DNA of 64,000 bases from IMG/VR virus record IMGVR_UViG_2671180724_000008. One strand, written 5' to 3'. Numbering within the stretch: the first letter of the stretch is position 1; every line of letters starts with the position of its first letter. A model generated the notes under the pieces. It was not told the DNA's origin. It did no database searches and saw only the letters and a list, made by a program, of their open reading frames with translations. The position numbers were made by a program, and so were the translations under genes. This stretch comes from a virus. Lineage: Duplodnaviria; Heunggongvirae; Uroviricota; Caudoviricetes. Below are positions 5,997 to 58,176 of this stretch, one piece after another.

Positions 5997-6126
5997 AGAA
6001 TAAGGTCACCAATGCTGGTGGCCTTAAATGACCATCCTGCTTCCCTCAGGCTAAAAACACCAACCTCTTACCTCCAGGCAACCGACAAACCCACCTGTTC
6101 CCGTCCGGCTACCGCAACTTTCCACT

Positions 6127-6180
6127 TTGACGCCTTATTCGTACAACGATAATTAACACAAACAAGAAAACAATTTGTTA
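6127..6180 (+). promoter_or_regulatory. Sigma70-like promoter (ttgacg -35, about 16-17 bp spacer, AT-rich -10) with operator agaaaacaatttgtta
   Basis: Read directly; preceded by CAGGC(T)A...CCG...CCAACC repeats at 6040-6110. Confidence 0.55.
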
Positions 6181-6200
6181 TTTACGATAAGGAATTAATC

Positions 6201-6683
6201 ATGAATTTTATCGCTACTGTAAACGCACCCGCACATGGCAATATCGCTGTAACGTTCTCTGACATTGAAAAACGAGTACTTGGTGCATGGCGCGACAATG
6301 AGACGGTAGAACTGTCAGCACAAGAAAAATGCATTATTGCACGCGACATCATTGGCAATCGTCGTTACTCGCGGGTATTTGAGAAAGCGTATGTGGTAAA
6401 TTCTGGATTCGGAACGTTCGTCTTTCCGGTGCGCTCCGGGCGATTCTGCCAGTCCAAGCTGATTGAGTTCGCTACGCAGATTTCTTTCTGGATTAAAACT
6501 CAATCGTCGTTCAAATTTTCCGACGATGAAGCAGTATCGCAGGGGATGCGGATCGCCAACAATGCGATTAAATGCAAAAACATTACGTATACCGCTGGCG
6601 TTGACACATGGAAACTGTTTTGCGCTAACTTTATGCTGAATGTATACGCAAGCAACCGCATCCACATCCTTGATGGCGTGTAA
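6201..6683 (+). CDS. Hypothetical protein
   Basis: 160-aa ORF; no recognisable motif. Confidence 0.6.
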   Translation: MNFIATVNAPAHGNIAVTFSDIEKRVLGAWRDNETVELSAQEKCIIARDIIGNRRYSRVFEKAYVVNSGFGTFVFPVRSGRFCQSKLIEFATQISFWIKTQSSFKFSDDEAVSQGMRIANNAIKCKNITYTAGVDTWKLFCANFMLNVYASNRIHILDGV

Positions 6684-6691
6684 CTGAGAAG

Positions 6692-6715
6692 AGGGCCAGA
6701 AACGGCCCTTTATCT
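6692..6715 (+). terminator. Rho-independent terminator
   Basis: agggcc...ggccct hairpin plus tttatct. Confidence 0.5.
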
Positions 6716-6731
6716 ATAGCCACCAGCTGCC

Positions 6732-6819
6732 GCAGGGAAATTTTCAGAAACGGCGAGGAAAGCATTCATGAGCCGACGGGAAACGGCCAGGATTTTTTCG
6801 GGAAACGGCTGCATTCGCC
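6732..6819. repeat. Second cluster of GGGAAA(A/C)GG repeats (cagggaaattttcagaaacggcgagg, cgggaaacggccagg, cgggaaacggctgcattcgcc)
   Basis: Same core as the 3774-3912 cluster, in non-coding DNA. Confidence 0.55.
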
Positions 6820-7269
6820 TTTATGTAGAAAAAACATCGGGAAGCTGGTGGAATCCAACCAGCGGTTGTCGGACAGGTGAGCGGGGAAAATTATGATGAC
6901 TTTCGTCGCCTGAGACATCCAGATTTCTTTCGTAGCATAATCACATACGTGATTAAGTGGTGTGATTATGTGAAAAATCACGCGCACATAATACGCGAGC
7001 GGATACGGAACAAAACAAAATGCCGATCCGCGCCGACAAATAAACGCGGATCATAAAGCAAGACTAAAAGCCAATGATTAACCATACTCTATAGCGCAAT
7101 ATAACGCGTTTTAAGCGCGTTAATGTGTTAAGTAATGGGTATGTACTGGTAAGGATATAAAAGCGCGTCTATGGCGTTATTTTGGCGCTTATTTTTATGT
7201 TGTTGGAGTGAGTTAAAGACAATAAAAAACGCGCTAATGATGGCGCGTTATGGTGGGAGTATTGGAAAC

Positions 7270-7294
7270 GAAAAAAGCGCCCATAGTGGGCGCT
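7270..7294 (-). terminator. Terminator of the minus-strand block (probably bidirectional)
   Basis: gcgccc atagt gggcgc hairpin flanked by A-run on plus and T-run on minus; same hairpin recurs inverted at 7777-7795. Confidence 0.6.
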
Positions 7295-7299
7295 CGATT

Positions 7300-7530
7300 T
7301 TATTTGTGTAAACTGATTTTAAATCCCATTTCTACAAACGCTTTTAACATTAAAAATATATCAGCGTCGTTCACGTCTGCTTTTTTTCGCTCCTGGTCGC
7401 TCAATAAGTCAATTTTGCGCGTCGTTTCATCTATAAGCTCGACTGCGCGCCCAGCGTAACCAGCGATCCCAGCGATGCGATTAACATAATATTCATTATG
7501 GACGTTAACGCCAGCGATAAGAACAAACAT
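7300..7530 (-). CDS. Hypothetical small protein
   Basis: 76-aa ORF in AT-rich minus-strand block. Confidence 0.45.
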   Translation of the reverse strand: MFVLIAGVNVHNEYYVNRIAGIAGYAGRAVELIDETTRKIDLLSDQERKKADVNDADIFLMLKAFVEMGFKISLHK

Positions 7531-7549
7531 GATTAAGCTCCTTAAAAAA

Positions 7550-7798
7550 TTAAATAGAATTTTGAAGTTTTCCGATTAATGCGCTTAAACGTAAGTATTC
7601 ACGTTTGCGCTTGCAATCTCGCTTGCTGTTAAGCAAATCAGAAAACGTAAAATTTAATTGGTCGCGTTGCGCGATCAAATCATCGATTAATTCCAGTTTA
7701 TAAGCGCGATACTTTGCGCGATATTCCGCGCGGATCTTGTCATAGCTGACCATCTTTAAAGCTCCTTTAAAGCGCCCACTATGGGCGCTTGATTCCAT
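7550..7798 (-). CDS. Hypothetical small basic protein
   Basis: 82-aa ORF, Arg/Lys-rich C-terminal half. Confidence 0.45.
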   Translation of the reverse strand: MESSAHSGRFKGALKMVSYDKIRAEYRAKYRAYKLELIDDLIAQRDQLNFTFSDLLNSKRDCKRKREYLRLSALIGKLQNSI

Positions 7799-7801
7799 TA
7801 A

Positions 7802-8452
7802 TTACGCTTTGAAAGCATCAGCTAAATAATTGTAGAAATCATTTTTAATGAAGCGATATTGCTGAGTACCAGCTTTCGCGCTCCCAGCTCCTTTGACTTT
7901 TTCAACAAGTCCAAGACGTTCGCAAAGATTGATCAACTGGTTGGCTTGAGTATAGCCAGCGTCCAATTTAATTTCACACGCTTTTTTAGCTTCATTCATT
8001 AAATCGAAAACAGCGCCATTGGTGAACGTGTCGATCTCGTCGTTAATCATATCGATTAAAGCAAATACACGAGATCCTGACATATCAGCGATGGAATAAA
8101 CGCATTTACCAGATTTAATTGATTTAACCAGATAAACCAGTTTTTCCAGAGAATAACTATTAGTCATTGCATCACGGAAAAATACTTCTGGCGCTTGTTT
8201 GCTTGCTTTAATCGCATAGTAGAAAACAGAGCATAATTTTTCGTCTTCTACTGCGTTTACGACGTTGTTGATGAAGTAAGCAAGTTTAGTGGTCGCAGCT
8301 TGCATATTTGCTTTGTCTGCTTTAGTGTGCGTACCATTTTTATAATGTTCGTTATATGTTTGAGTTGCCAGATCTGCTTTTTCGCGCAGTTCATCGGATA
8401 CAATGGAAGCAGCTTCAATGATGGATTTTTTAGAAATGATAATGTTAGCCAT
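7802..8452 (-). CDS. Hypothetical protein, possible winged-helix C-terminus
   Basis: 216-aa ORF; AT-rich; C-terminal segment LINLCERLGLVEKVKG resembles a wHTH recognition element (weak). Confidence 0.5.
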   Translation of the reverse strand: MANIIISKKSIIEAASIVSDELREKADLATQTYNEHYKNGTHTKADKANMQAATTKLAYFINNVVNAVEDEKLCSVFYYAIKASKQAPEVFFRDAMTNSYSLEKLVYLVKSIKSGKCVYSIADMSGSRVFALIDMINDEIDTFTNGAVFDLMNEAKKACEIKLDAGYTQANQLINLCERLGLVEKVKGAGSAKAGTQQYRFIKNDFYNYLADAFKA

Positions 8453-8689
8453 GATAATTTTTCCTTATGTAAATTTAAAATTTATTGTCGTTAGCGTCTT
8501 CGCTTTCGACGAGTTCAATTATCGATACGCGAAAAAAGATTGCAAGTGTTTTTTTAAAATTTTTTGCAGGGATGAAAGTCCTAGAAATAAAAGCGAGATC
8601 GTCGAAGGTGTTCCCTAAATAAATAATCGATTGCGGCTTTAGACCTTATATATATTTAGGTTATTTGATTTGTAGATATAAAGAAGTGA

Positions 8690-8722
8690 TGTGAAAAATA
8701 ATAACCGGACTTAGCCGGTTAT
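8690..8722 (-). terminator. Terminator for the 8736-9044 gene
   Basis: aataaccgg...ccggttatt hairpin followed by T-run on the minus strand. Confidence 0.55.
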
Positions 8723-8735
8723 TAACCTTATAGAT

Positions 8736-9044
8736 TTATTGAACAGACTCTACAGCCTTACGATTGGTGTCAAATAGCGCATCAACGAACTGTGCCGATG
8801 ACTCGCTAGATTCGCAATCCAACATTGCCCTTTCTTCATTTGCCACTTTCTTACACAGTTCCACATTCTCACCTATCGCTTTTCCTGCTTTTACGGCTGC
8901 CGAAAATTGATACATGCAAACTGATACATTCTGAGACGTTGAGCACACGTCATTCATCAGCGACTGAATGACAGGCTTATAGTCCATTGCATTTGCCGCA
9001 ACTGAGCAAAGTAAAAATAATGGTGGTAACAATATCGATTTCAT
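8736..9044 (-). CDS. Secreted small protein (N-terminal signal peptide)
   Basis: Hydrophobic leader ending in AANA; several Cys residues. Confidence 0.55.
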   Translation of the reverse strand: MKSILLPPLFLLCSVAANAMDYKPVIQSLMNDVCSTSQNVSVCMYQFSAAVKAGKAIGENVELCKKVANEERAMLDCESSESSAQFVDALFDTNRKAVESVQ

Positions 9045-9047
9045 AAC

Positions 9048-9650
9048 TCAAAAAGGCAAAATTCGTTCAACCCAATCGAACAAAACAACTATTTTTCTAC
9101 CGTTCTCGACACGTAGTGTAACCTGACAAGCATCTGCGCCTGCTGACACCCCCTCAATTTCACGGCCATCCGCCATGTACACCCTTATAGATTTGTTTGC
9201 TTTGTAGGCTTGGTTGCAAATTGCAAAAAAATCGCGGCGTGATGGCCGATTATCGACATAATCAGGGTGAACTGTTAGTCGACCTTTGAAATCGTGAGCG
9301 ATACTGTCAACCACACCTGATTCAATTGTACTAATGCGTTCAAGTGGGAGCCTTATACGATTTTCTTTGTCAAAAGGGGCTGGGCAAAGGTCAACTTTGT
9401 TACGAGATGGCATGAGGCCATAAACGTACATGCAAAACGCCTGGCCATCTTCGAGAGTGACCCTTACAGGAATTTGTTCTCTGCGCCAGAACATCAGTAG
9501 TTTTTCAACGTTAGTGTAATCTCGCGGCCAGAGTTCAGCTTGGATACCGTAGGTAATATCTTTGGTTGTCATGTCATCACAGAGTTGTTGGCAGAATGTC
9601 GATGTCACCAGAATTGCTGGTGAACACCCTGAACGCTTTTGTGTCTCCAT
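9048..9650 (-). CDS. Hypothetical protein (start uncertain; alternative ATG at 9572)
   Basis: 200-aa ORF; overlaps the upstream lipoprotein ORF by 74 nt if the 9650 start is used. Confidence 0.5.
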   Translation of the reverse strand: METQKRSGCSPAILVTSTFCQQLCDDMTTKDITYGIQAELWPRDYTNVEKLLMFWRREQIPVRVTLEDGQAFCMYVYGLMPSRNKVDLCPAPFDKENRIRLPLERISTIESGVVDSIAHDFKGRLTVHPDYVDNRPSRRDFFAICNQAYKANKSIRVYMADGREIEGVSAGADACQVTLRVENGRKIVVLFDWVERILPF

Positions 9651-9999
9651 TCTTCAGAGTCGTTTCTCGCTCTTGACGAGCGGGGTTTAGAGCACATAAA
9701 CCTGCACCTTCAAGAGATGCACCCACAATTAATTCTCCGGCATTTAAATGGAAAGTCGCTTTTTCGCCTGTAGCCAGTTTTGCGACAGTTTCGCCGTTGA
9801 TGAAAATGGAAGCATCACATCCAGCTCCTACAAAACCTGTGTCTCTCATTACCACCAACGTAGCTGGCGCTGCGCTTTGATACTTGAACACTTTGGCCTG
9901 CGGTGCTGGTTTGGCGTCATGGATTGATATTGGGCGTGATTGGCACGCGGTAAGCATCAACACTGGTAACGTTAGTAGAGGGAGAAGCGAGTATTTCAT
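9577..9999 (-). CDS. Lipoprotein
   Basis: Signal peptide with lipobox LTAC when started at MKYSLLPLL (9999). Confidence 0.55.
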   Translation of the reverse strand: MKYSLLPLLTLPVLMLTACQSRPISIHDAKPAPQAKVFKYQSAAPATLVVMRDTGFVGAGCDASIFINGETVAKLATGEKATFHLNAGELIVGASLEGAGLCALNPARQERETTLKNGDTKAFRVFTSNSGDIDILPTTL

Positions 10000-10067
10000 G
10001 ATAGTTTTAGAACAGAAAGTGAACAGTATGGGAGACTTCATCTTTGTCTCCCTAATTGATAGCGTGA

Positions 10068-10346
10068 TTATTTTAATCTGCTTAATAGCGTTTCGAGATC
10101 TTCCTTTGTCATATTAGAGTTCTCATAGATACGCATGATTTTCTCACGAGTCTTAGCGGAAGCCCCGACAGAAGATATAACCTTGTCAAAGTCGGCCATT
10201 GTCAATTGTTCCAGAATGGTATTTATGACTTCAGCCTTAGACATTTTGATATTTTTTTCTTTTAGTTTCACTTGAAACTTTCCAAGTTTGTCATTGGCCT
10301 TATCAGACAATGCTACCTGACAATAAGTTGTTTTCTTTTCGCTCAT
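10068..10346 (-). CDS. Hypothetical small protein
   Basis: 92-aa Lys-rich ORF directly upstream (in transcription order) of the 8736-9999 genes. Confidence 0.5.
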   Translation of the reverse strand: MSEKKTTYCQVALSDKANDKLGKFQVKLKEKNIKMSKAEVINTILEQLTMADFDKVISSVGASAKTREKIMRIYENSNMTKEDLETLLSRLK

Positions 10347-10348
10347 AA

Positions 10349-11908
10349 CTAATCTCGTTTCAGAACTCCAAAATCGAATGCTCCATCAATAGGCAATACA
10401 CCTTCTGCAAAGCCAGGTGTGGTGTCGATGATGTGTTTTCGCTCATAAGAGTGAGACAACAGGTATTTGTTGCTAATGTCAATGAAATCAGTGATAAAAC
10501 ACACGTTTGCCTGATTTTTTTTGGCTCGTAAGCCACGACCGACACGCTGCCTCATTTCAACTTCTGCTTTCCCACCACCAGCAAGAATGACCGCACCAAC
10601 GCTTGGCACATCAACACCGACATCCAGAATAGTCGAGCCTATTAAAACATCTATTTCTCCAGACGCTAAACTGTTCAGCTTTGCTTGCCTTGTCGCCTGG
10701 TTAGATTCCCCATAGATGAAGTCAACTCTAAGGCCGGACTCTTTCATCATTTCCATCAGGATTTGCCCGTGGCGTTTAAGACGAACCAGAGTCATACAAT
10801 TGAGAGAATGTTGCTTATAGAGCAATGCTTCGCGAACAATGGCCTCGTTACGTCCCAAATTATACACGATCCCCAACTGATAAGCCTTTTGGTAGGCGGT
10901 GCTCATACCAACTCTAAAATTGAGGTGTTTGTTGGCAAGTTCGGCCTTGATTCTGGCCTCGTCTGGCTTGTAGGCAACTTTATGATAAAGGAAGTACGGC
11001 TTTGCCAGAATGCCTCGATCAATCAGGTACTTTTCTGTGACTTTAATTTCAATTCGCCCGGCCACCGCCATCAGGCGCATGTTGGCTTCCGTCGAATCCT
11101 TCATGAACGGCGTGGCTGTAAGCGCCAGACGATAGTCTGCGTTCACACATAATCTGGCGATGTCATAGAAATTTGAGCCTGAAGACTCATGCGCCTCTTC
11201 CAGAATAAGAAGAGAGACACTTGAAAGGAAGCGTTTCACCAACTCCCGACGTTTGAGGTGGTAGCTTTTCTTATCTGGTGTTGCATCGCGTGGTGGTTCT
11301 TCGAGGAAACTTGCAAGAGTTTGAACTGTAGCGACGTTGATATGTCGTGATACCTGGAACTCACCCGAGCCAATGACTCCAACCTTTTGGTCTTTTAACC
11401 ACGGTTCGCCATTTTCGGCGCGGTAGTCGATGGATCTCTGGAAGTTTTCGGCCATTTGAAACATCAGAACAGAGCGGGTTGTTAAAAATAATGTCATTCG
11501 ACCGATACGTGCAGCTGCTTTGCAGGCAACGTTAGATTTCCCGCCACCAGTAGCGATCTGCGCAATCATCATTCCCTCTCGAACCAGTGTTTCCACAGTC
11601 TGATCCTGATACGCATAATCAGGATTGTATGGGAATGGGTTAACCGCCGGATTTGGTTTACCAAGCGCCGGGGCTTTGTCTTTGCGGATATGAACACATT
11701 TGATGCCCGCCTTGTTCAAGTTCGCCGCTACAGGCTTGGCAAAGCCAGCAGGGAACGAGTTTTTACTCCAGTTGAACATCGTGCTTGTGCCCTTCCAGTC
11801 GCCAGTCTCGACTTCGTAGCTCAACATTTGCTGCACCAGTTGCTTTACCTTGTCATCTGCGCCAGAAATAAGCGCATTTACTGCGTTAGATACAATCCGA
11901 ACAGTCAT
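10349..11908 (-). CDS. Superfamily-2 DEAD/DEAH-type DNA helicase
   Basis: Walker A ATGGGKS, DEAH-like LILEEAHE, LTATP motif III, C-terminal helicase domain with arginine-finger motif QRVGRGLR. Confidence 0.8.
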   Translation of the reverse strand: MTVRIVSNAVNALISGADDKVKQLVQQMLSYEVETGDWKGTSTMFNWSKNSFPAGFAKPVAANLNKAGIKCVHIRKDKAPALGKPNPAVNPFPYNPDYAYQDQTVETLVREGMMIAQIATGGGKSNVACKAAARIGRMTLFLTTRSVLMFQMAENFQRSIDYRAENGEPWLKDQKVGVIGSGEFQVSRHINVATVQTLASFLEEPPRDATPDKKSYHLKRRELVKRFLSSVSLLILEEAHESSGSNFYDIARLCVNADYRLALTATPFMKDSTEANMRLMAVAGRIEIKVTEKYLIDRGILAKPYFLYHKVAYKPDEARIKAELANKHLNFRVGMSTAYQKAYQLGIVYNLGRNEAIVREALLYKQHSLNCMTLVRLKRHGQILMEMMKESGLRVDFIYGESNQATRQAKLNSLASGEIDVLIGSTILDVGVDVPSVGAVILAGGGKAEVEMRQRVGRGLRAKKNQANVCFITDFIDISNKYLLSHSYERKHIIDTTPGFAEGVLPIDGAFDFGVLKRD

Positions 11909-11954
11909 AAACCTCTTTCCTTAGTGCCTTTTGTATGTTATTTGGCTATTATAA

Positions 11955-11972
11955 TAAGTAAGTGATTACTTA
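11955..11972. promoter_or_regulatory. TAAGTA-N6-TACTTA palindrome in divergent promoter region
   Basis: taagtaagtgattactta between the minus-strand helicase start and the plus-strand ParB-like gene. Confidence 0.5.
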
Positions 11973-11990
11973 GTGGATTGTAGCAATAAA

Positions 11991-12671
11991 ATGGATGTAA
12001 AAATCACGATTTTGCAGGTTGATGTTGCCAACCTTCGCCCGAATACCTGGAACACCAATTCGGTTGGTGCGCAGAATTTTGAAAAACTGAAAGGTTCTAT
12101 CGAAAAATTGGGCTTTTTTAAGCCAATTTTGGCTCGTGAACTTGAAGATGGATTTTTTGAAATCCTCGGCGGCGAACATCGCTGGCGTGCTGCTATTGAG
12201 CAAGGAATTTCAACGGTTCCGGTGCTTTCTGTGGGCAAAATTAGCGATGTCGTAGCTAAACAGATGTCACTGGTGGACAACGAGCGATACGGTGAAGACG
12301 ACCAAATCGCATTGCAACGCTTCATTGAAGAAATTCAGTCAGAACTTGACTATCAACTGTCTGAAATCGCCCCGTATGACGACGAAATCTCGATGGTTTT
12401 AGCAAAAGAGGCGGCAATCGACCTTGAAGCACTGGAGGCGTTGTCTCGTGGTAGTGATGAGCCTGTCGATACCGACAAACGAGAGAAAACCGAACGTGTG
12501 GGTGCGGAACATCAGACCATGCGCTTCAAAGTAACTTTCGATGCGTCAGATCGTGTTGCAGAAACCATAAAAAACATCATCAAAGAGCAGGCTATTAACA
12601 CCGGTAATGAAATGGAGAACGCTGGTGAGGCTCTGGTGTGGCTGGTCGACTACTACAAGGAGCGTATGTAA
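11991..12671 (+). CDS. ParB-like nuclease domain protein 1
   Basis: ParB N-terminal domain signature ILGGEHRWRAA; acidic C-terminus; alternative GTG start at 11973. Confidence 0.7.
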   Translation: MDVKITILQVDVANLRPNTWNTNSVGAQNFEKLKGSIEKLGFFKPILARELEDGFFEILGGEHRWRAAIEQGISTVPVLSVGKISDVVAKQMSLVDNERYGEDDQIALQRFIEEIQSELDYQLSEIAPYDDEISMVLAKEAAIDLEALEALSRGSDEPVDTDKREKTERVGAEHQTMRFKVTFDASDRVAETIKNIIKEQAINTGNEMENAGEALVWLVDYYKERM

Positions 12672-13339
12672 TGACCAAAAAGTTTGAAATCGTATATCGC
12701 GACCCGGCAGATCTTATTCCCTATGAGATGAATGCCAAAAAGCATGATGAACAGCAGATCCGAGATCTAGCCGCAGCCATTAAAAAGCGCGGATTTGACC
12801 AGCCAATTACGGTCGATAAGAACGACGTAATTATTACTGGCCACGGCCGCCGTGAGGCTGCAATTTTTGCTGGACTTGAGCGCGTACCGGTTATTGTTCG
12901 CGATGATCTCAGTGATGACGAGGTTCGTGCGAAGCGCCTTGAAGATAACCGACTTGCCAGCATTGATTACGATGCAATTAAGCTACAGAAAGAGCTTGAG
13001 TCGCTTGTTCTGGACGATATCGAGGTTTTCGGCTTTGAAGAGCGTGAGTTGAATGTTCTCGTTGGCAGTATGACAGAAGAAATGGACACCGACTCGCTAG
13101 TTATCGATCTTGGCGAAGAAACTAAACGACAGAAGGATGAACACACCGAGATCAGTCGTGAAGTTGCAGCGGAAGAAGTACGTGTTGTCGACGTATTGGG
13201 CTTTAAAACGCTCCCTGCTGGCTCTGCCATTGTTGTTGGTGATTTGCTTGCCCACATGGAAGAAATGACGGGAGAAAGCGGGGTAGACGCATTTGTGGCA
13301 TATGCGGAGAAGATCTCTTCCGGGGAGATGGCTGCATGA
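12671..13339 (+). CDS. ParB-like nuclease domain protein 2
   Basis: ITGHGRREAA motif; aaggag RBS; ATG overlaps upstream stop (taATG). Confidence 0.7.
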   Translation: MTKKFEIVYRDPADLIPYEMNAKKHDEQQIRDLAAAIKKRGFDQPITVDKNDVIITGHGRREAAIFAGLERVPVIVRDDLSDDEVRAKRLEDNRLASIDYDAIKLQKELESLVLDDIEVFGFEERELNVLVGSMTEEMDTDSLVIDLGEETKRQKDEHTEISREVAAEEVRVVDVLGFKTLPAGSAIVVGDLLAHMEEMTGESGVDAFVAYAEKISSGEMAA

Positions 13340-14001
13340 GCAAATACATCATCAACGTATCGTTTCAGACACGCGTAAATAAAACCACGCGCACGTTGGA
13401 AATCGCTGAGTCGTTCGGGCTTGGCCTGGACGAAAAAGAGTGGACGCTTTACGACAATCTGGAGCTGGAAGTGAAGCAGGGCGATGTGGTGTACATCACC
13501 GGCCAATCCGGTTCCGGCAAATCCGTTGTGCTGCGCGAGTTGCAACGACAGATGAAGGATGAAGGGCTGTCTGTAGCCTCCATCGATGATTTTACCTTCG
13601 ATAATGAGGTTAACGTCATCGATCAGTTGGGCAAAACGACCAGTGATGCGCTTGGGTTGTTATCTATGGCTGGTCTGAACGATGCATATCTGTTTGTTCG
13701 CAAGCCTTCTGAAATGTCAGACGGCCAGAAATATCGTCTCAAGATTGCCAAACTGATTGAGTCAGGCGCTAAAGTGTGGGCTGCTGACGAGTTCGGCGCT
13801 GTTCTCGACCGTGTAACCGCTCAGGTTGTGGCGTCTAACCTCCAGCGTGCCGCTCGAAAGGTTGGTGCGACGGTAATGGTGGCGACGACTCACGAAGACC
13901 TGAAGAACGCGCTGCGCCCGGATATGCAGATCACCAAGCACTACAAAGAACGCGTGAAGGTGGAATATCACAATGGTAGTCACGATGAGGTCCATTCATG
14001 A
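13336..14001 (+). CDS. Small ABC-type/P-loop ATPase
   Basis: Walker A GQSGSGKS, signature-like SDGQKYRLKIA, Walker B VWAADEFG; ATGA overlap with upstream gene. Confidence 0.65.
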   Translation: MSKYIINVSFQTRVNKTTRTLEIAESFGLGLDEKEWTLYDNLELEVKQGDVVYITGQSGSGKSVVLRELQRQMKDEGLSVASIDDFTFDNEVNVIDQLGKTTSDALGLLSMAGLNDAYLFVRKPSEMSDGQKYRLKIAKLIESGAKVWAADEFGAVLDRVTAQVVASNLQRAARKVGATVMVATTHEDLKNALRPDMQITKHYKERVKVEYHNGSHDEVHS

Positions 14002-14888
14002 CGGACATCATCATTAAACGCTACCGCCCTGAAGAGTTTCCGCGTCATCTGGACTTTCTGGAGCGAATGACTGTTACAAAGGGAACTGTAGAGGACTGGC
14101 ACGCTCTTAAGTCGCTTCACTACAAAACAGACGGCAAACCTTTCGCGCCAACTTACTATCGCTGCGAACTTGATGACCGTCTGGTGGGCGTCGTGGTTAT
14201 GGCTTACCCGAAACTACTGTTGGCACCTCGCCACCGCATGTTTCCTAAGTTGAAACCAACCACTAATACCACCGTGGCTAACCAGTACTGGGGTCGGTAC
14301 GTGAATAACAACTTTGCGGTGATCAGTCGCTCAGTTGTGGATACTCAGTATCGTGGCGTAGGCGTCTCTTATCGAATGATTAACCTGGTTAGCAGGATGC
14401 ATGACCGGCCAATCATTGAGATCCAGTCCTCGATGAGCAAATACAATCCCTTCGCCATGAAAGCAGGGTTTAAGTTCATCCGCCCTGAGCGACCGAAGAG
14501 CTATGAAAGTGCACTGCGTGTATTCCAGCGCCATTTCCGTTCCGACCCGGGTGATAACGAGGCGATCGTCAAAGAGTTGTTCGCAATGAGCGAGTCTCGT
14601 CGTCGCCGTGCACTGCGTGATCTGGTGGCGGACTACCACAAGAACAGTTCCCTGGCAAAAGCTGGGCGGAATCGTGGCACGACGATTCAGGACATTGCCG
14701 ACAGTCTGGTGGACGAGGCCAGCATTGTGAAGTTGCTCAAGGACATTCACAACCTGAGCTTTACGTCTCCGTTGTATGGGGTGTATCGAAACCCTGACTT
14801 TGGTCGTCGACTGCCTGACACGCTGCCACTGCTGGCATTCGACAAACAACCTTTGGATAAACCGTTAGAAATTGCTTTACCGGCATAA
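13998..14888 (+). CDS. GNAT-like (acetyltransferase-fold) protein with basic C-terminal extension
   Basis: YRGVGVSYRMINLV resembles the GNAT acetyl-CoA-binding motif; ATGA overlap with upstream ATPase. Confidence 0.45.
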   Translation: MTDIIIKRYRPEEFPRHLDFLERMTVTKGTVEDWHALKSLHYKTDGKPFAPTYYRCELDDRLVGVVVMAYPKLLLAPRHRMFPKLKPTTNTTVANQYWGRYVNNNFAVISRSVVDTQYRGVGVSYRMINLVSRMHDRPIIEIQSSMSKYNPFAMKAGFKFIRPERPKSYESALRVFQRHFRSDPGDNEAIVKELFAMSESRRRRALRDLVADYHKNSSLAKAGRNRGTTIQDIADSLVDEASIVKLLKDIHNLSFTSPLYGVYRNPDFGRRLPDTLPLLAFDKQPLDKPLEIALPA

Positions 14889-55595: not shown

Positions 55596-56170
55596 GTGGT
55601 GAATGCACAGGCTGATGTGCCGCAACTACAGTAGTGCGCGCTTTGCGGGGCTTGCTACAACCCTGTGTCGGAGATCAGCGCCGACCATCACAATTTGGCT
55701 CTCTTGCAACAGCATAACGCTGAAATATGTCCAACCTGGTGCGGCCTGTTCACCCGCCGTTAGCTCCACGAAACGGAGCGCACAACAGATAAGAGAACTT
55801 CCCATATGGGGCTTGGCTTAAATGCATCGAGTTCTCTTATCGCTGTGTCACAGACAAATTTCCGACAGCCCTGTTTATCATCGGACGCAACCTAAAAGGT
55901 CGAGGCAAAGCCAGGTAATAGCGGAGGGAGTGACACAGCACACAACAGGTAAGAGCATTTGTAGAGTTCGACTCTCTACCGTGGGCTTTTTCCCGCGATG
56001 CGAGCCATAAATGCTCTTTCCGTTGTGGTGGATTCGCAGACTGATGCGATAGCTTTCTTGGATGTTAGGGAAATGCGGCCGCAAATCTTCCCTTTCGCGA
56101 GCGGTGATCGTCCGTAGTCCTAATTGGCTGCACCGTATGCCGGAGATTCAGTACCGGCCACCACAACGGC

Positions 56171-56257
56171 CGGAGAGTAGGGAGCATGGTGCTCAAGCGG
56201 TCTTGAAAACCGTCCCATTGTGCAAACGATGATGGTTCGATTCCATTACTCTCCGCC
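56171..56257 (+). tRNA. tRNA-Ser (anticodon TGA) with long variable arm
   Basis: Acceptor GGAGAGT/ACTCTCC, anticodon loop CTTGAAA, T-loop GGTTCGATTCC, encoded CCA. Confidence 0.8.
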
Positions 56258-56260
56258 AGA

Positions 56261-56336
56261 CACAGCGTTGAGCGGTTTGGCCTTTTAATCAACTCGATTA
56301 AGACTCCGCTAACATAAACCAGACCGCTCAACGCTG
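56261..56336. repeat. 19-bp-arm inverted repeat immediately 3' of tRNA-Ser (acagcgttgagcggtttgg / ccagaccgctcaacgctgt)
   Basis: Read directly; one mismatch, 38-nt loop. Confidence 0.6.
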
Positions 56337-56414
56337 TGATAGACAATTACGGCAGACGTTCTTAACCATAGCTTGCTAACATCCTAGCAACACTTTTTTT
56401 CAGCGCAAAATTCA

Positions 56415-56436
56415 AAGGGGCTTCGGCCCCTTTTTT
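56415..56436. terminator. Bidirectional rho-independent terminator
   Basis: ggggc ttcg gcccc hairpin with A-run upstream and tttttt downstream; sits between the tRNA region and the end of the minus-strand gene. Confidence 0.7.
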
Positions 56437-56453
56437 GAAAGCAATGGGCAAGT

Positions 56454-57788
56454 TCATGCCAAATTATCCAGATTTCTTTTCTTTTTTTCAATTATATTTC
56501 TCGCGCCAGAAAAAATTTTACTCAAAATAATTGATTTGCTTGCTCTATTATTAAGATGTAACAACGCGCTATAAAATACATAGTTATCTATTTTACTATT
56601 TAAAGTATTCCCAAGCTTCCCGTTATATGTGCTATTAATAGTATTAAAATATACATGTTCAGGACCTATATTACAAATACCCCTATCAACTCGCTTTAAA
56701 TAATGTTTAACTAAAGAAATAGCATCTTCCTTATCATTAATAACATAAAGTCCTGAGCGTTTACCTAGCTTGCTGTCCGAGAATAATTTATAACCAACAA
56801 GTTCATTTAACGTATTATCCACTTTTGTCAACTCTTTGTTGGCAATCTCCAAATAATACTCAATCTCTTTCTCCATATTACTTATTAAAGAGTTAAATTC
56901 TGCTCGTAACAAATCACCACCAGGTGATTTATAACTCCATAAAATTGAATTGGTAATACGTACTACGTCAGATACTTCTGGTTTCTCTGAATAGTTTTTG
57001 TATCTAGTGCAAATAATGCTGTGCTTTATATATTCTCTAACTAATGATCGATAATCCCTTTCGAAAAGGTTTTTGACATCTAGTCTTCCATTGCTTGTTG
57101 TTATTAAGGTGGTGTTTAAAACTGGGTCGCCTTCAAAAAAATTATATTTATTTAGTAATCGTTTTAGCTTGTGTGAATTATGTGATGTTTCGCCATAATA
57201 ATTTATCCCAAAAATAGCAATTATTAGCATAACATCAGGAGTGATGAAATGTCGTAATTGCTCGGCATAAACTTTTTTATCTTCGATTTTCGAAGATGGA
57301 GAGTAAAAACCTTTGTCTATATATTCTAATATTGAAACAATATTACTAACATAACGTATAAAAACTTGATTCATTACAACGGAATCATAAACCTGATGCA
57401 AATAATCTACTCTCAAGTTGTTTTTTATTTTTTCCCCTGTACTAGATGATAACTCTTCTTTTACCTGCCCAAGTAGCTTTTCGTGGTGCTCCAGCAATGT
57501 TTTAAACCATTGTTCAAATGATGATTTTCTTGCCTCAGTTAATGAATCTGATGTTATCTGGACAGCTTTCATAGCTGCTTTCGCACTTTTCTTTGCTTCA
57601 TAAGCGTTCCATGCTGAAGCACAAAAAGCTGCCGCCGTGATGCAACTGGTAAAAATAGAAATCCTATCTGCAACATTCAAGCTCCAGAACCAATCAGACG
57701 ATGAAATCAAAACCACAGATATTACGGGAACAATGAAAATCAAAACAGGCATGTATGTACTCGCTCTAATAGTTATTAGTCGAGGCAA
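56454..57788 (-). CDS. Low-GC 444-aa membrane-anchored protein of unknown function (candidate abortive-infection or defence cargo)
   Basis: Two N-terminal transmembrane segments then a large Lys/Asn/Tyr/Ile-rich soluble domain; strongly AT-rich codon usage unlike the rest of the element; own promoter and terminator. Confidence 0.6.
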   Translation of the reverse strand: MPRLITIRASTYMPVLIFIVPVISVVLISSSDWFWSLNVADRISIFTSCITAAAFCASAWNAYEAKKSAKAAMKAVQITSDSLTEARKSSFEQWFKTLLEHHEKLLGQVKEELSSSTGEKIKNNLRVDYLHQVYDSVVMNQVFIRYVSNIVSILEYIDKGFYSPSSKIEDKKVYAEQLRHFITPDVMLIIAIFGINYYGETSHNSHKLKRLLNKYNFFEGDPVLNTTLITTSNGRLDVKNLFERDYRSLVREYIKHSIICTRYKNYSEKPEVSDVVRITNSILWSYKSPGGDLLRAEFNSLISNMEKEIEYYLEIANKELTKVDNTLNELVGYKLFSDSKLGKRSGLYVINDKEDAISLVKHYLKRVDRGICNIGPEHVYFNTINSTYNGKLGNTLNSKIDNYVFYSALLHLNNRASKSIILSKIFSGARNIIEKKKRNLDNLA

Positions 57789-57845
57789 ATATTATATAAA
57801 TCTCGTTATGATTTACAGACATGTATACGTATTGCTAATTATCAC

Positions 57846-57883
57846 CAACAAATGATAGGTGTGTACATATCTATCATTTGTTG
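57846..57883. promoter_or_regulatory. Perfect 13-bp inverted repeat caacaaatgatag / ctatcatttgttg in the divergent promoter region
   Basis: Read directly; lies between the start of the minus-strand 444-aa gene and the plus-strand glutaredoxin gene. Confidence 0.55.
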
Positions 57884-57930
57884 TAAAATTAATGTATACG
57901 CTATGAATACACTAATAATATGAGGTAATC

Positions 57931-58176
57931 ATGACTATCGTTATCTACGGACGAGATAACTGTTCATACTGCAAACGTGCGGTCGAGCTGGCGAAGCAAC
58001 TAAAGGGACATGGCTACGGTGATTATGAGTACATCGACATCACTACTACCGGTATCGATAAGGAAAAACTTAGCGAAATTGTTGGTAAACCGGTAGAGAC
58101 TATACCCCAGGTACTGATCGATGGCCAGCCGATTGGCGGATACACAGAACTGGCTGCATACGTCAGCACCCTCTGA
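57931..58176 (+). CDS. Glutaredoxin (NrdH/Grx-like)
   Basis: 81 aa with CSYC active-site motif near the N-terminus and thioredoxin-fold length. Confidence 0.75.
   Translation: MTIVIYGRDNCSYCKRAVELAKQLKGHGYGDYEYIDITTTGIDKEKLSEIVGKPVETIPQVLIDGQPIGGYTELAAYVSTL

Follow-up and report, generated by a model that had tools for sequence, protein, structure and literature searches.

Several described systems resemble parts of the locus treated here. Promoter-early stem-loops (PeSLs) are mobile regulatory cassettes of T4-type phages (PMC2839356, PMC4122927). The exact inversion of a hairpin loop is a pattern that was attributed to template switching (PMC8794818), and work on quasipalindromes was done in E. 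coli (PMC7202029). FljA-like proteins, a plasmid-borne one included, repress the translation of fliC (PMC2652032). SSU5-type phage-plasmids were covered as a group in a phage-plasmid survey in which flagella were unmentioned (PMC7969092). Here, we analyzed a block of seven small minus-strand genes (g1 to g7, in the order of their positions; 7270–10346) in a stretch of 64,000 nt (hereafter the window) from the IMG/VR virus record IMGVR_UViG_2671180724_000008. The joint explanation that we favor, and consider fairly probable, is that the block makes up the distal portion of a minus-strand region that is conserved in SSU5-type phage-plasmids and contains three slots of gene turnover, the third of which is delimited by a short hairpin.

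The region 7000–12000 was 98.3% identical to Escherichia phage CMS-2020a and matched phage Cyrano and Salmonella phage SSU5 piecewise. A 5.8-kb query matched 715 PLSDB plasmids (best identity 99.6%), whose hosts were Klebsiella, Escherichia, Enterobacter, Yersinia pestis (pMT1), Salmonella (pHCM2-type), and Citrobacter. Identity to the E. coli phage CMS-2020a and to E. coli plasmids was 98–99.6%. Because of these phage and plasmid matches, the window was classed as an SSU5-type phage-plasmid.

Conserved Scaffold and Variable Slots

The comparison set consisted of 80 IMG/VR loci with the helicase gene, together with Cyrano, SSU5, and three Klebsiella plasmids, and the helicase served as the anchor gene. 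The order helicase, g7, slot 1, g5, slot 2, g3 was fixed in 71 of the 71 non-redundant intervals from the helicase to g3. The layout persisted in the Klebsiella plasmids, in which the helicase was only ~70% identical, and where the identity of g3 was down to 49%. The remaining genes (g1, g2, g4, and g6) were patchily distributed and occupied three slots where relatives held other genes, among them lipoproteins, signal-peptide proteins, and HEPN, SMEK or HNH proteins. Slots 1 and 2 contained 28 different gene arrangements among the relatives, and most of the slot proteins carried signal peptides or lipoboxes. In a few relatives, genes of the defence or conflict type were found between the g7 and g3 homologues: HEPN_LA2681 (E = 7e-37), SMEK_N plus EAD11 (E = 2e-30), an HNH endonuclease, and DUF3800. 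Their presence in the slots of relatives makes the region an accessory and defence hotspot. The open reading frames (ORFs) bearing such genes were in loci L071 (607 aa), L072 (337 aa), L022 (377 aa), and L069 (385 aa).

An earlier interpretation, made from the DNA letters of the window (the sequence-only reading), had taken the block for one acquired accessory module. In its strongest form, this says that the whole AT-rich block of seven opposite-strand genes is a horizontally acquired island beside the helicase, with its own terminators. The lower GC content that it reported was reproduced (0.405 in the block and 0.462 in the window, at the 2.6th percentile among windows of the same length), and this value, the patchiness of four of the seven genes, and a terminator at the distal end are what an island would show. 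However, g7, g5, and g3 were universal and syntenic in all lineages, the distant Klebsiella plasmids included, and all seven genes belonged to PHROG families, the homologues of g3 and g5 coming almost only from SSU5-type elements. The GC deficit was located in g1, g2, g3, and g7 and in the 283-nt intergenic region between g3 and g4 (0.31–0.40), and g5 and g6 were average (0.45–0.47). The genes with the lowest GC content, g3 and g7, were conserved ones, so that composition is no marker of recent acquisition here. Moreover, the helicase lies on the same strand, 2 nt from g7, and no boundary element was found on that side. Acquisition of the whole block as an island is thus very improbable. As part of the claim, it survives for g1, g2, g4, and g6, which fit the pattern of absence from close relatives with atypical composition; g3, g5, and g7 do not fit it, being universal although g3 and g7 have the lowest GC content. 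The sequence-only reading had also named what would count against it, namely conservation and synteny in all relatives together with matches to known replication accessory factors: the scaffold was conserved and syntenic, but no protein matched such a factor. On the comparative evidence, the block is best described as a conserved scaffold with turnover hotspots, not as one acquired island. The lowest GC content of the window was at 56001–58000 (0.34–0.39), below that of the block.

The transcriptional layout also differed from the earlier description. The block had been placed upstream of the helicase (519 aa, 10349–11908); as both are on the minus strand and 2 nt apart, it is transcriptionally downstream. 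The genes do run opposite to orf160 (plus strand), with which they converge, but they share the strand of the helicase. Hairpins had been thought to bound the block, and a predicted terminator was indeed present at the distal end, but no bounding hairpin on the helicase side. The view that the genes have their own terminators applies in part: terminator-like hairpins follow g4, g3, and g1, not each gene, and the one after g3 is weak, with only 3 T. The hairpin after g4 (8699–8724, minus strand, −12.6 kcal/mol) would end the helicase-g7-g6-g5-g4 unit.

The organization can be stated in terms of fixed and exchangeable parts. The fixed scaffold comprises the helicase, g7, the tandem-Sm gene g5, and the winged-helix gene g3, which has a leader hairpin and a predicted promoter and terminator of its own. 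Slots 1 and 2 flank g5 and encode mostly exported proteins (here the lipoprotein g6 and the secreted protein g4) or, in some relatives, defence-type proteins; the exported ones may be surface-modifying or of the superinfection-exclusion type. Slot 3, after g3, contains at most two small genes and in some cases none; these belong to just two families, represented here by g2 and g1. Known phage "morons" and superinfection-exclusion lipoproteins, e.g., T5 Llp and phi80 Cor, offer a parallel for slots 1 and 2. The likeness is one of analogy only: small, variable, low-GC genes for exported proteins or lipoproteins stand between conserved phage genes. However, g6, g5, and g4 appear to be translationally coupled in a longer operon, with which their gaps of 4 nt and 3 nt are consistent, and do not each have a promoter and terminator. 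No homology to known exclusion proteins was found when the seven proteins were searched against Pfam, PHROG, NCBIfam, and PADLOC.

The 17-nt Hairpin and the Slot 3 Cassettes

The 17-mer GCGCCCATAGTGGGCGC occurred in two exact copies in the 64 kb of the window, at 7277–7293 (plus strand) and 7772–7788 (minus strand), where 0.06 were expected by chance. The sequence-only reading had noticed two inverted copies of one hairpin here; the opposite orientation of the two was confirmed, but the second copy had been placed at 7777–7795, ~5 nt off. The apparent inversion arises because the two are the same element with one loop flipped. On the minus strand, the terminal copy (7277–7293) would be transcribed as GCGCCCA-CUA-UGGGCGC, with a 9-bp stem of −15.5 kcal/mol followed by U6. 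It is predicted to be the intrinsic terminator of the g3-g2-g1 unit because a GC stem is followed by U6; it also scored as a terminator on the plus strand and was kept in relatives. The internal copy (7772–7788, minus strand, −15.1 kcal/mol), whose loop is inverted relative to the terminal one, lies 13 nt past the g3 stop and is followed by UUUAAAGGAG, a ribosome-binding site, and then by the ATG of g2. It has the same stem with only UUU before the ribosome-binding site, and the terminator scan did not call it. It is likely a leaky terminator and a 3′ stabiliser.

The motif GCGCCCA-N3-TGGGCGC was found after g3 in every relative, in one to three copies. For a non-circular check, the 75 nt after each g3 stop were inspected and the motif was not presupposed. 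Exact stems of 7+7 nt were present in 56 of 58 distinct contexts, down to a g3 identity of 49%; of the two others, one had a single mismatch and one a related variant. Beyond this locus, the 17-mer was found nowhere in the window or in ~1.28 Mb of related loci. A scan of IMG/VR for exact matches returned 104 stretches, and 92 of 102 new loci were at this same locus in SSU5-type contigs. The other ten matches were single and mostly in high-GC coding sequence, consistent with chance; one contig pair was operator-like and two matches were terminator-like. In that pair, which belongs to unrelated viral contigs with a GC content of 0.51 (L089:2146-2202 and L163:525-581), TGCCCATAGTGGGCA and GCGCCCATAGTGGGCGC flank a TATGCTATAAT box before a ribosome-binding site.

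The units between hairpin copies held only two families of small proteins. Family A consisted of g1 and a paralogue of 45–51% identity, and family B of g2 and a distant 67-aa homologue. Empty hairpin units, spaced 27–63 nt, were also found in relatives and in Klebsiella plasmids. In the relatives, internal copies were followed by T3-4, AAGGAG, and ATG, and terminal copies by T6. Where g2 and g1 occur as a pair, as in the window, no hairpin stands between them, and the junction, ...ATTTAA followed directly by TTTTTTAAGGAGCTTAATCATG, reads as a precise loss of the hairpin. We propose that on RNA the hairpin would form a strong stem-loop, acting as a leaky terminator where UUU and a ribosome-binding site follow and as a full terminator where U6 follows. 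On DNA, it is the only sequence common to the alternative cassettes and could serve as a short-homology joint for their gain, loss, and duplication.

This arrangement recalls PeSL cassettes, in which small variable ORFs are bordered by copies of a short, conserved stem-loop and close relatives begin and cease to differ at this motif: g1-type, g2-type, and empty units were all bordered by the 17-mer. However, the motif here, 17 nt long with a T run and a ribosome-binding site, lacks a promoter, whereas a PeSL joins a stem-loop terminator to an early promoter. It was restricted to one locus and two cassette families, whereas PeSLs are dispersed over many hyperplastic regions, and it is nearly identical family-wide with a loop that inverts. 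A likeness to integron cassettes is also apparent: small ORFs without promoters form an array, and every one is accompanied by an inverted repeat able to fold into a hairpin. However, a 17-nt perfect palindrome differs from attC sites of 57–141 nt, which are imperfect and have extrahelical bases, and only two cassette families were present here. An integron-like array was rejected: neither the block nor the neighbouring genes showed an integrase domain, and no attI, Pc promoter or attC-type structure was present in the block. An invertible segment between the inverted 17-mers was likewise rejected, because relatives with the same gene order had either loop orientation at either position and g2 and g1 were never inverted.

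The loop itself varied in a regular manner. Read in the gene sense, it was CTA in 83 and TAG in 16 of 111 unique contexts, and the rest were the complementary pairs TTG/CAA, TTA/TAA, and TCA/TGA. Six cases combined a differing loop with 40-nt flanks that were identical on either side, and in all six the difference was an exact reverse complement. The flipped form made up ~14% of the unique contexts, and flipping was seen in at least six independent ones. The near-identical relatives L003 and L004 showed either orientation at either position. These changes are like those described for template switching (PMC8794818, PMC7202029) in that the loop between perfect stem arms is exactly reverse-complemented and all else is identical; they differ in recurring at one specific, functionally placed hairpin of a mobile element. 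A perfect palindrome of this kind would also undergo template switching during replication, with the loop flipping as the outcome.

The simplest alternative is that the hairpins are ordinary intrinsic terminators, identical only through close kinship, and that the inverted pair has no further meaning. A GC stem with a T run is typical of terminators, and many of the loci were >90% identical in the helicase. However, the stems were identical even where g3 was 49% identical and synonymous sites were saturated, the one to three copies were in register with the cassettes, and exact loop inversions recurred within identical flanks. In addition, the 17-mer was essentially unique to this locus across IMG/VR. 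We therefore regard this alternative as highly unlikely.

The gene directly upstream of the hairpin offers a comparison within the same genomes. g3 (216 aa, 7802–8452, minus strand), a conserved scaffold gene, was modelled with a long N-terminal helical hairpin and a C-terminal domain with the winged helix-turn-helix fold. The best model had a predicted local distance difference test (pLDDT) score of 83 and a predicted template modelling (pTM) score of 0.76, and the other four models scored 58–66. No Pfam family matched it, and its homologues were found almost only in enterobacterial, plasmid-sized contigs of the SSU5 type; by its model, it is a putative DNA-binding protein confined to these elements. 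A sigma-70 promoter was predicted before it (TTGCAA at 8545–8540 and GATAAT at 8523–8518, minus strand, with a 16-nt spacer and an upstream A-tract), and this was conserved family-wide. Directly after the promoter, a leader hairpin that is likewise conserved (8510–8487, minus strand, −9.8 kcal/mol) was found with the structure GUCG-AA-AGCG-AAGA-CGCU-AA-CGAC. It contains an AA/AA internal loop, and three of its eight pairs were changed on both sides in a compensatory manner. This hairpin could be a 5′ mRNA stabiliser or the binding site of a regulator.

Several points weigh against the favored account of slot 3. The g2-g1 pair without an intervening hairpin means that one hairpin per gene is not a strict rule. 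With two cassette families only, slot 3 is a small presence/absence polymorphism, not an open-ended array. Recombination at the hairpin is deduced from end points only, and the promoter, terminator, and read-through roles are predictions. Finally, the near-invariance of the stem exceeds what a terminator needs, and since the leader hairpin of g3 covaries in the same genomes, structure alone permits change. Taken together, the two observations make a sequence-specific reader of the hairpin possible. Either frequent exchange homogenises the hairpin, or something reads its sequence; for the latter, g3 is a candidate on DNA and g5 on RNA.

Two explanations of the invariance were thus weighed. In the second, the palindrome is primarily a recognition site, either a DNA operator of a dimeric protein (e.g., g3) or an RNA hairpin bound by g5, which gates read-through into the cassettes, and the invariance results from selection. 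The pattern of invariant stems with a central 3 nt that vary and flip is as expected for a symmetric dimer site, and the covariation of the leader hairpin points the same way. The winged-helix gene g3 always directly precedes the hairpin, and in an unrelated viral contig TGCCCATAGTGGGCA and GCGCCCATAGTGGGCGC stand around a TATAAT box in an operator-like arrangement. However, the position of the hairpin is after g3 rather than at the g3 promoter, near which no half-sites were found, and the T run that always follows is terminator-like. The candidate binders also vary strongly (g5 32–100% and g3 47–100% identity), whereas the site is constant. A primary role as a recognition site therefore seems rather unlikely, and a palindrome that works as terminator and cassette joint is preferred.

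The convergent intergenic region between orf160 (plus strand) and g1 (minus strand), at 6684–7299, contained several terminator-like GC hairpins, namely at 7295–7275, 7249–7228, 7053–7024, and 6997–6981 on the minus strand and at 7165–7189 on the plus strand, together with repeat family D3. One of these (7228–7249, minus strand, −10.2 kcal/mol), AACGCGCCAUCAUUAGCGCGUU with a U run, stands 44 nt past the terminal hairpin as a putative backup terminator hairpin and was present in most of the relatives' contexts. The intergenic GC hairpins look like decayed copies of the hairpin unit. Klebsiella relatives carried tandem hairpin units in the convergent region, and L078 (11552–11656) had three identical ones with a 44-nt period. 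This suggests repeated slippage-type duplication and decay in the hairpin series after the cassettes. The window copies of this series of hairpins with T runs were progressively degenerate; such a series was also observed in L186 (6811–7010).

The FljA-Family Gene g5

The scaffold gene between slots 1 and 2, g5 (174 aa, 9048–9572, minus strand), belongs to the FljA family (Pfam Flag1_repress). It matched PF03614 with 281.7 bits (cutoff 24; E = 2.5e-84) over profile positions 1–170 of 170. In a library of 1.84 billion proteins, it was 36% identical (E = 1.2e-25) to a cluster named Salmonella FljA by NCBI, and it was 35% identical over the full length to the FljA of the E. coli IncF plasmid L185, which is linked to a flagellin gene. 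A sequence search of PDB returned no match. The model of g5 shows two domains of the Sm/Hfq-like fold, in which a bent sheet of five beta-strands comes after an N-terminal helix; it was built as a monomer only, with a pTM of 0.54, so that the relative placement of the two domains is uncertain. As modelled, the tandem Sm/Hfq-like domains fit an RNA-binding translational repressor.

The likeness to FljA extends to the full-length homology, the size (174 and 179 aa), and the modelled domains. However, the genomic setting is different. On L185, a flagellin gene precedes fljA in the canonical operon. The neighbours of g5 are g6 and g4, and no flagellin or invertase gene was found in 6000–14000; it is a fixed backbone gene of a phage-plasmid beside genes for exported proteins, with no invertible promoter. 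Its homologues form two clades of their own and are kept in non-flagellated hosts.

Homologues of g5 were present on 835 plasmids, and 826 of them covered at least 80% of g5. Klebsiella accounted for 345 of the 835 plasmids and Y. pestis for 62. Klebsiella is classically non-flagellated, and Y. pestis is non-motile. Among the three Klebsiella plasmids, the ratio of nonsynonymous to synonymous substitution rates (dN/dS) of g5 was 0.15–0.17, with synonymous sites near saturation, and g5 is therefore being maintained in these plasmids. As it is under purifying selection in plasmids of Klebsiella, which is non-flagellated, and has no flagellin partner, the target of g5 may not be flagellin. The gene also differed from its surroundings in divergence: the proportion of synonymous differences (pS) between the window and L001 or L011 was ~0.62 in g5 and 0.03–0.08 in the helicase of the same genome pairs. 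By this measure of allele replacement, g5 itself is swapped.

Most likely, g5 would act as an RNA-binding translational repressor like FljA. The flagellin of motile hosts may be silenced by it, but the fact that Klebsiella plasmids retain the gene speaks for a different mRNA target, possibly one that the element encodes. The narrower proposal, compatible with the favored explanation, is that g5 is a lysogenic-conversion factor which binds the leader of the host fliC mRNA and shuts off flagellin synthesis, with cost saving, evasion of TLR5, and exclusion of flagellum-dependent phages as suggested benefits. It draws on the strong family membership and the fliC repression by FljA-like proteins noted above, and most hosts of the g5 subfamily are motile enterobacteria (E. 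coli, Salmonella, Enterobacter, Citrobacter, and Cronobacter). However, there are the many Klebsiella and Y. pestis plasmids, with the gene maintained in the former, and no flagellin gene is linked to g5, unlike on L185. The identity of the phage-plasmid clades to canonical FljA was only 25–37%. Furthermore, no literature was found that links SSU5-type elements to motility, and the literature search found none that ties FljA or flagellin repressors to SSU5 or phage-plasmids. We consider the conversion factor possible but doubtful. Repression of flagellin in motile hosts is plausible, but it cannot be the whole story, since g5 is retained under purifying selection in the plasmids of Klebsiella and Y. 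pestis, which argues for a role beyond fliC repression. The idea that the fliC leader might hold a hairpin like the 17-mer was discarded: the E. coli flagellin leaders inspected showed only a small CAGGUAAGCCUG stem-loop without resemblance.

The FljA family was tiny, with 26 representatives (clusters at 50% identity) at E ≤ 0.001 among the 1.84 billion proteins, four of them near full length. It consisted of the two phage-plasmid clades and the canonical flagellin-linked clade, about equally distant from each other. A further possibility, which we consider rather unlikely, is that the family consists primarily of phage-plasmid regulators with tandem Sm domains that bind RNA, whose main target is not flagellin. 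In SSU5-type elements, g5, g3, and the 17-nt hairpin would then form an element-specific circuit controlling the swappable cassettes, and Salmonella FljA would be a recruited offshoot; a parallel is Hin, which is related to phage invertases. If so, the FljA of Salmonella phase variation would derive from a regulator of mobile elements.

Other Genes of the Block and Its Surroundings

The seven minus-strand ORFs were confirmed where the sequence-only reading had placed them, and its secreted protein, lipoprotein, and winged-helix protein were recovered as g4, g6, and g3. Each of the seven proteins had an end-to-end match to a PHROG family (E from 2.6e-39 to 3.6e-139), and for this reason the ORFs are taken as real genes. 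For two of them, the longest ORF was too long, and the likely genes are g2 at 7550–7753 (67 aa) and g5 at 9048–9572 (174 aa). In the longer g2 ORF, the hairpin falls inside the N-terminal extension.

The first gene of the upstream unit encodes a DEAD/DEAH helicase (UvsW-like) with the Pfam domains ResIII, DEAD, and Helicase_C, and it is annotated in Cyrano and SSU5. The scaffold gene g7 (92 aa, 10068–10346, minus strand; PHROG 1466), present in 71 of 71 relatives, begins 2 nt past the helicase stop. Its product starts with a short segment resembling a beta-strand followed by two helices (TYCQVALSD...KAEVINTILEQL), which suggests a ribbon-helix-helix protein that binds DNA and is coupled to the helicase gene; profile searches gave no match in favor of the fold. 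In slot 1, g6 (9577–10041, minus strand) encodes a 154-aa lipoprotein (140 aa if the ATG at 9999 is the start) with the lipobox LTAC and matches to PHROG 890 "lipoprotein" (E = 9e-52) and, weakly, DUF2846; many relatives have other genes in its place. In the variable slot 2, g4 (102 aa, 8736–9044, minus strand; PHROG 9536) encodes a Cys-rich secreted protein with the signal peptide MKSILLPPLFLLCSVAANA followed by M. It was present in some relatives only and elsewhere was missing or substituted by other signal-peptide proteins.

The slot 3 gene g2 (7550–7753, minus strand; cassette family B), patchy in distribution, encodes a basic protein that is probably a coiled coil (PHROG 6145, positions 1–67 of 67, E = 5.9e-47). 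The label "MIT family metal ion transporter" (SSU5_119, phrog_6145) was not adopted for this 67-aa protein, which had no CorA or transporter match in Pfam, and is likely an annotation error. g1 (76 aa, 7300–7530, minus strand; cassette family A), also patchy, encodes a small cytoplasmic protein (PHROG 1585, E = 2.6e-39). Searches of Pfam, PHROG, NCBIfam, and PADLOC gave no informative matches for g1, g2, and g7. NCBIfam returned zero matches for all seven proteins, and among the seven genes the PADLOC defence models matched only g7, twice and weakly (E = 0.006–0.008). A search of Rfam at E ≤ 1 over 6000–12500 gave only three sub-threshold chance matches.

Divergent from the helicase, a conserved plus-strand cluster at 11973–14888 encodes two ParB-like proteins, an ATPase of the ABC type, and a protein of 296 aa that the Cyrano annotation describes as a fusion of an ATPase with an acetyltransferase. 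This cluster was syntenic in SSU5, Cyrano, and the Klebsiella plasmids.

Biological Implications

Phage-plasmids of the SSU5 type occur very frequently in clinical E. coli, Klebsiella, Salmonella (pHCM2), and Y. pestis (pMT1), and the locus was carried by more than 800 PLSDB plasmids. Two of its features seem undescribed: the near-invariant, loop-flipping hairpin bordering small cassettes, and an orphan FljA-family tandem-Sm gene in the core of SSU5-type elements, including those of non-flagellated hosts. Current views are not overturned by these findings. The map of fixed and turnover parts shows where the elements carry host-modifying genes, such as those for surface proteins and defence. 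The hairpin is a compact example from nature of template switching driven by a palindrome and of gene shuffling mediated by a short motif. Most of the full-length FljA diversity found here sits on SSU5-type plasmids, flagella-less hosts included, and this distribution gives a testable handle on the role of the RNA-binding fold and on the origin of the repressor of Salmonella phase variation.

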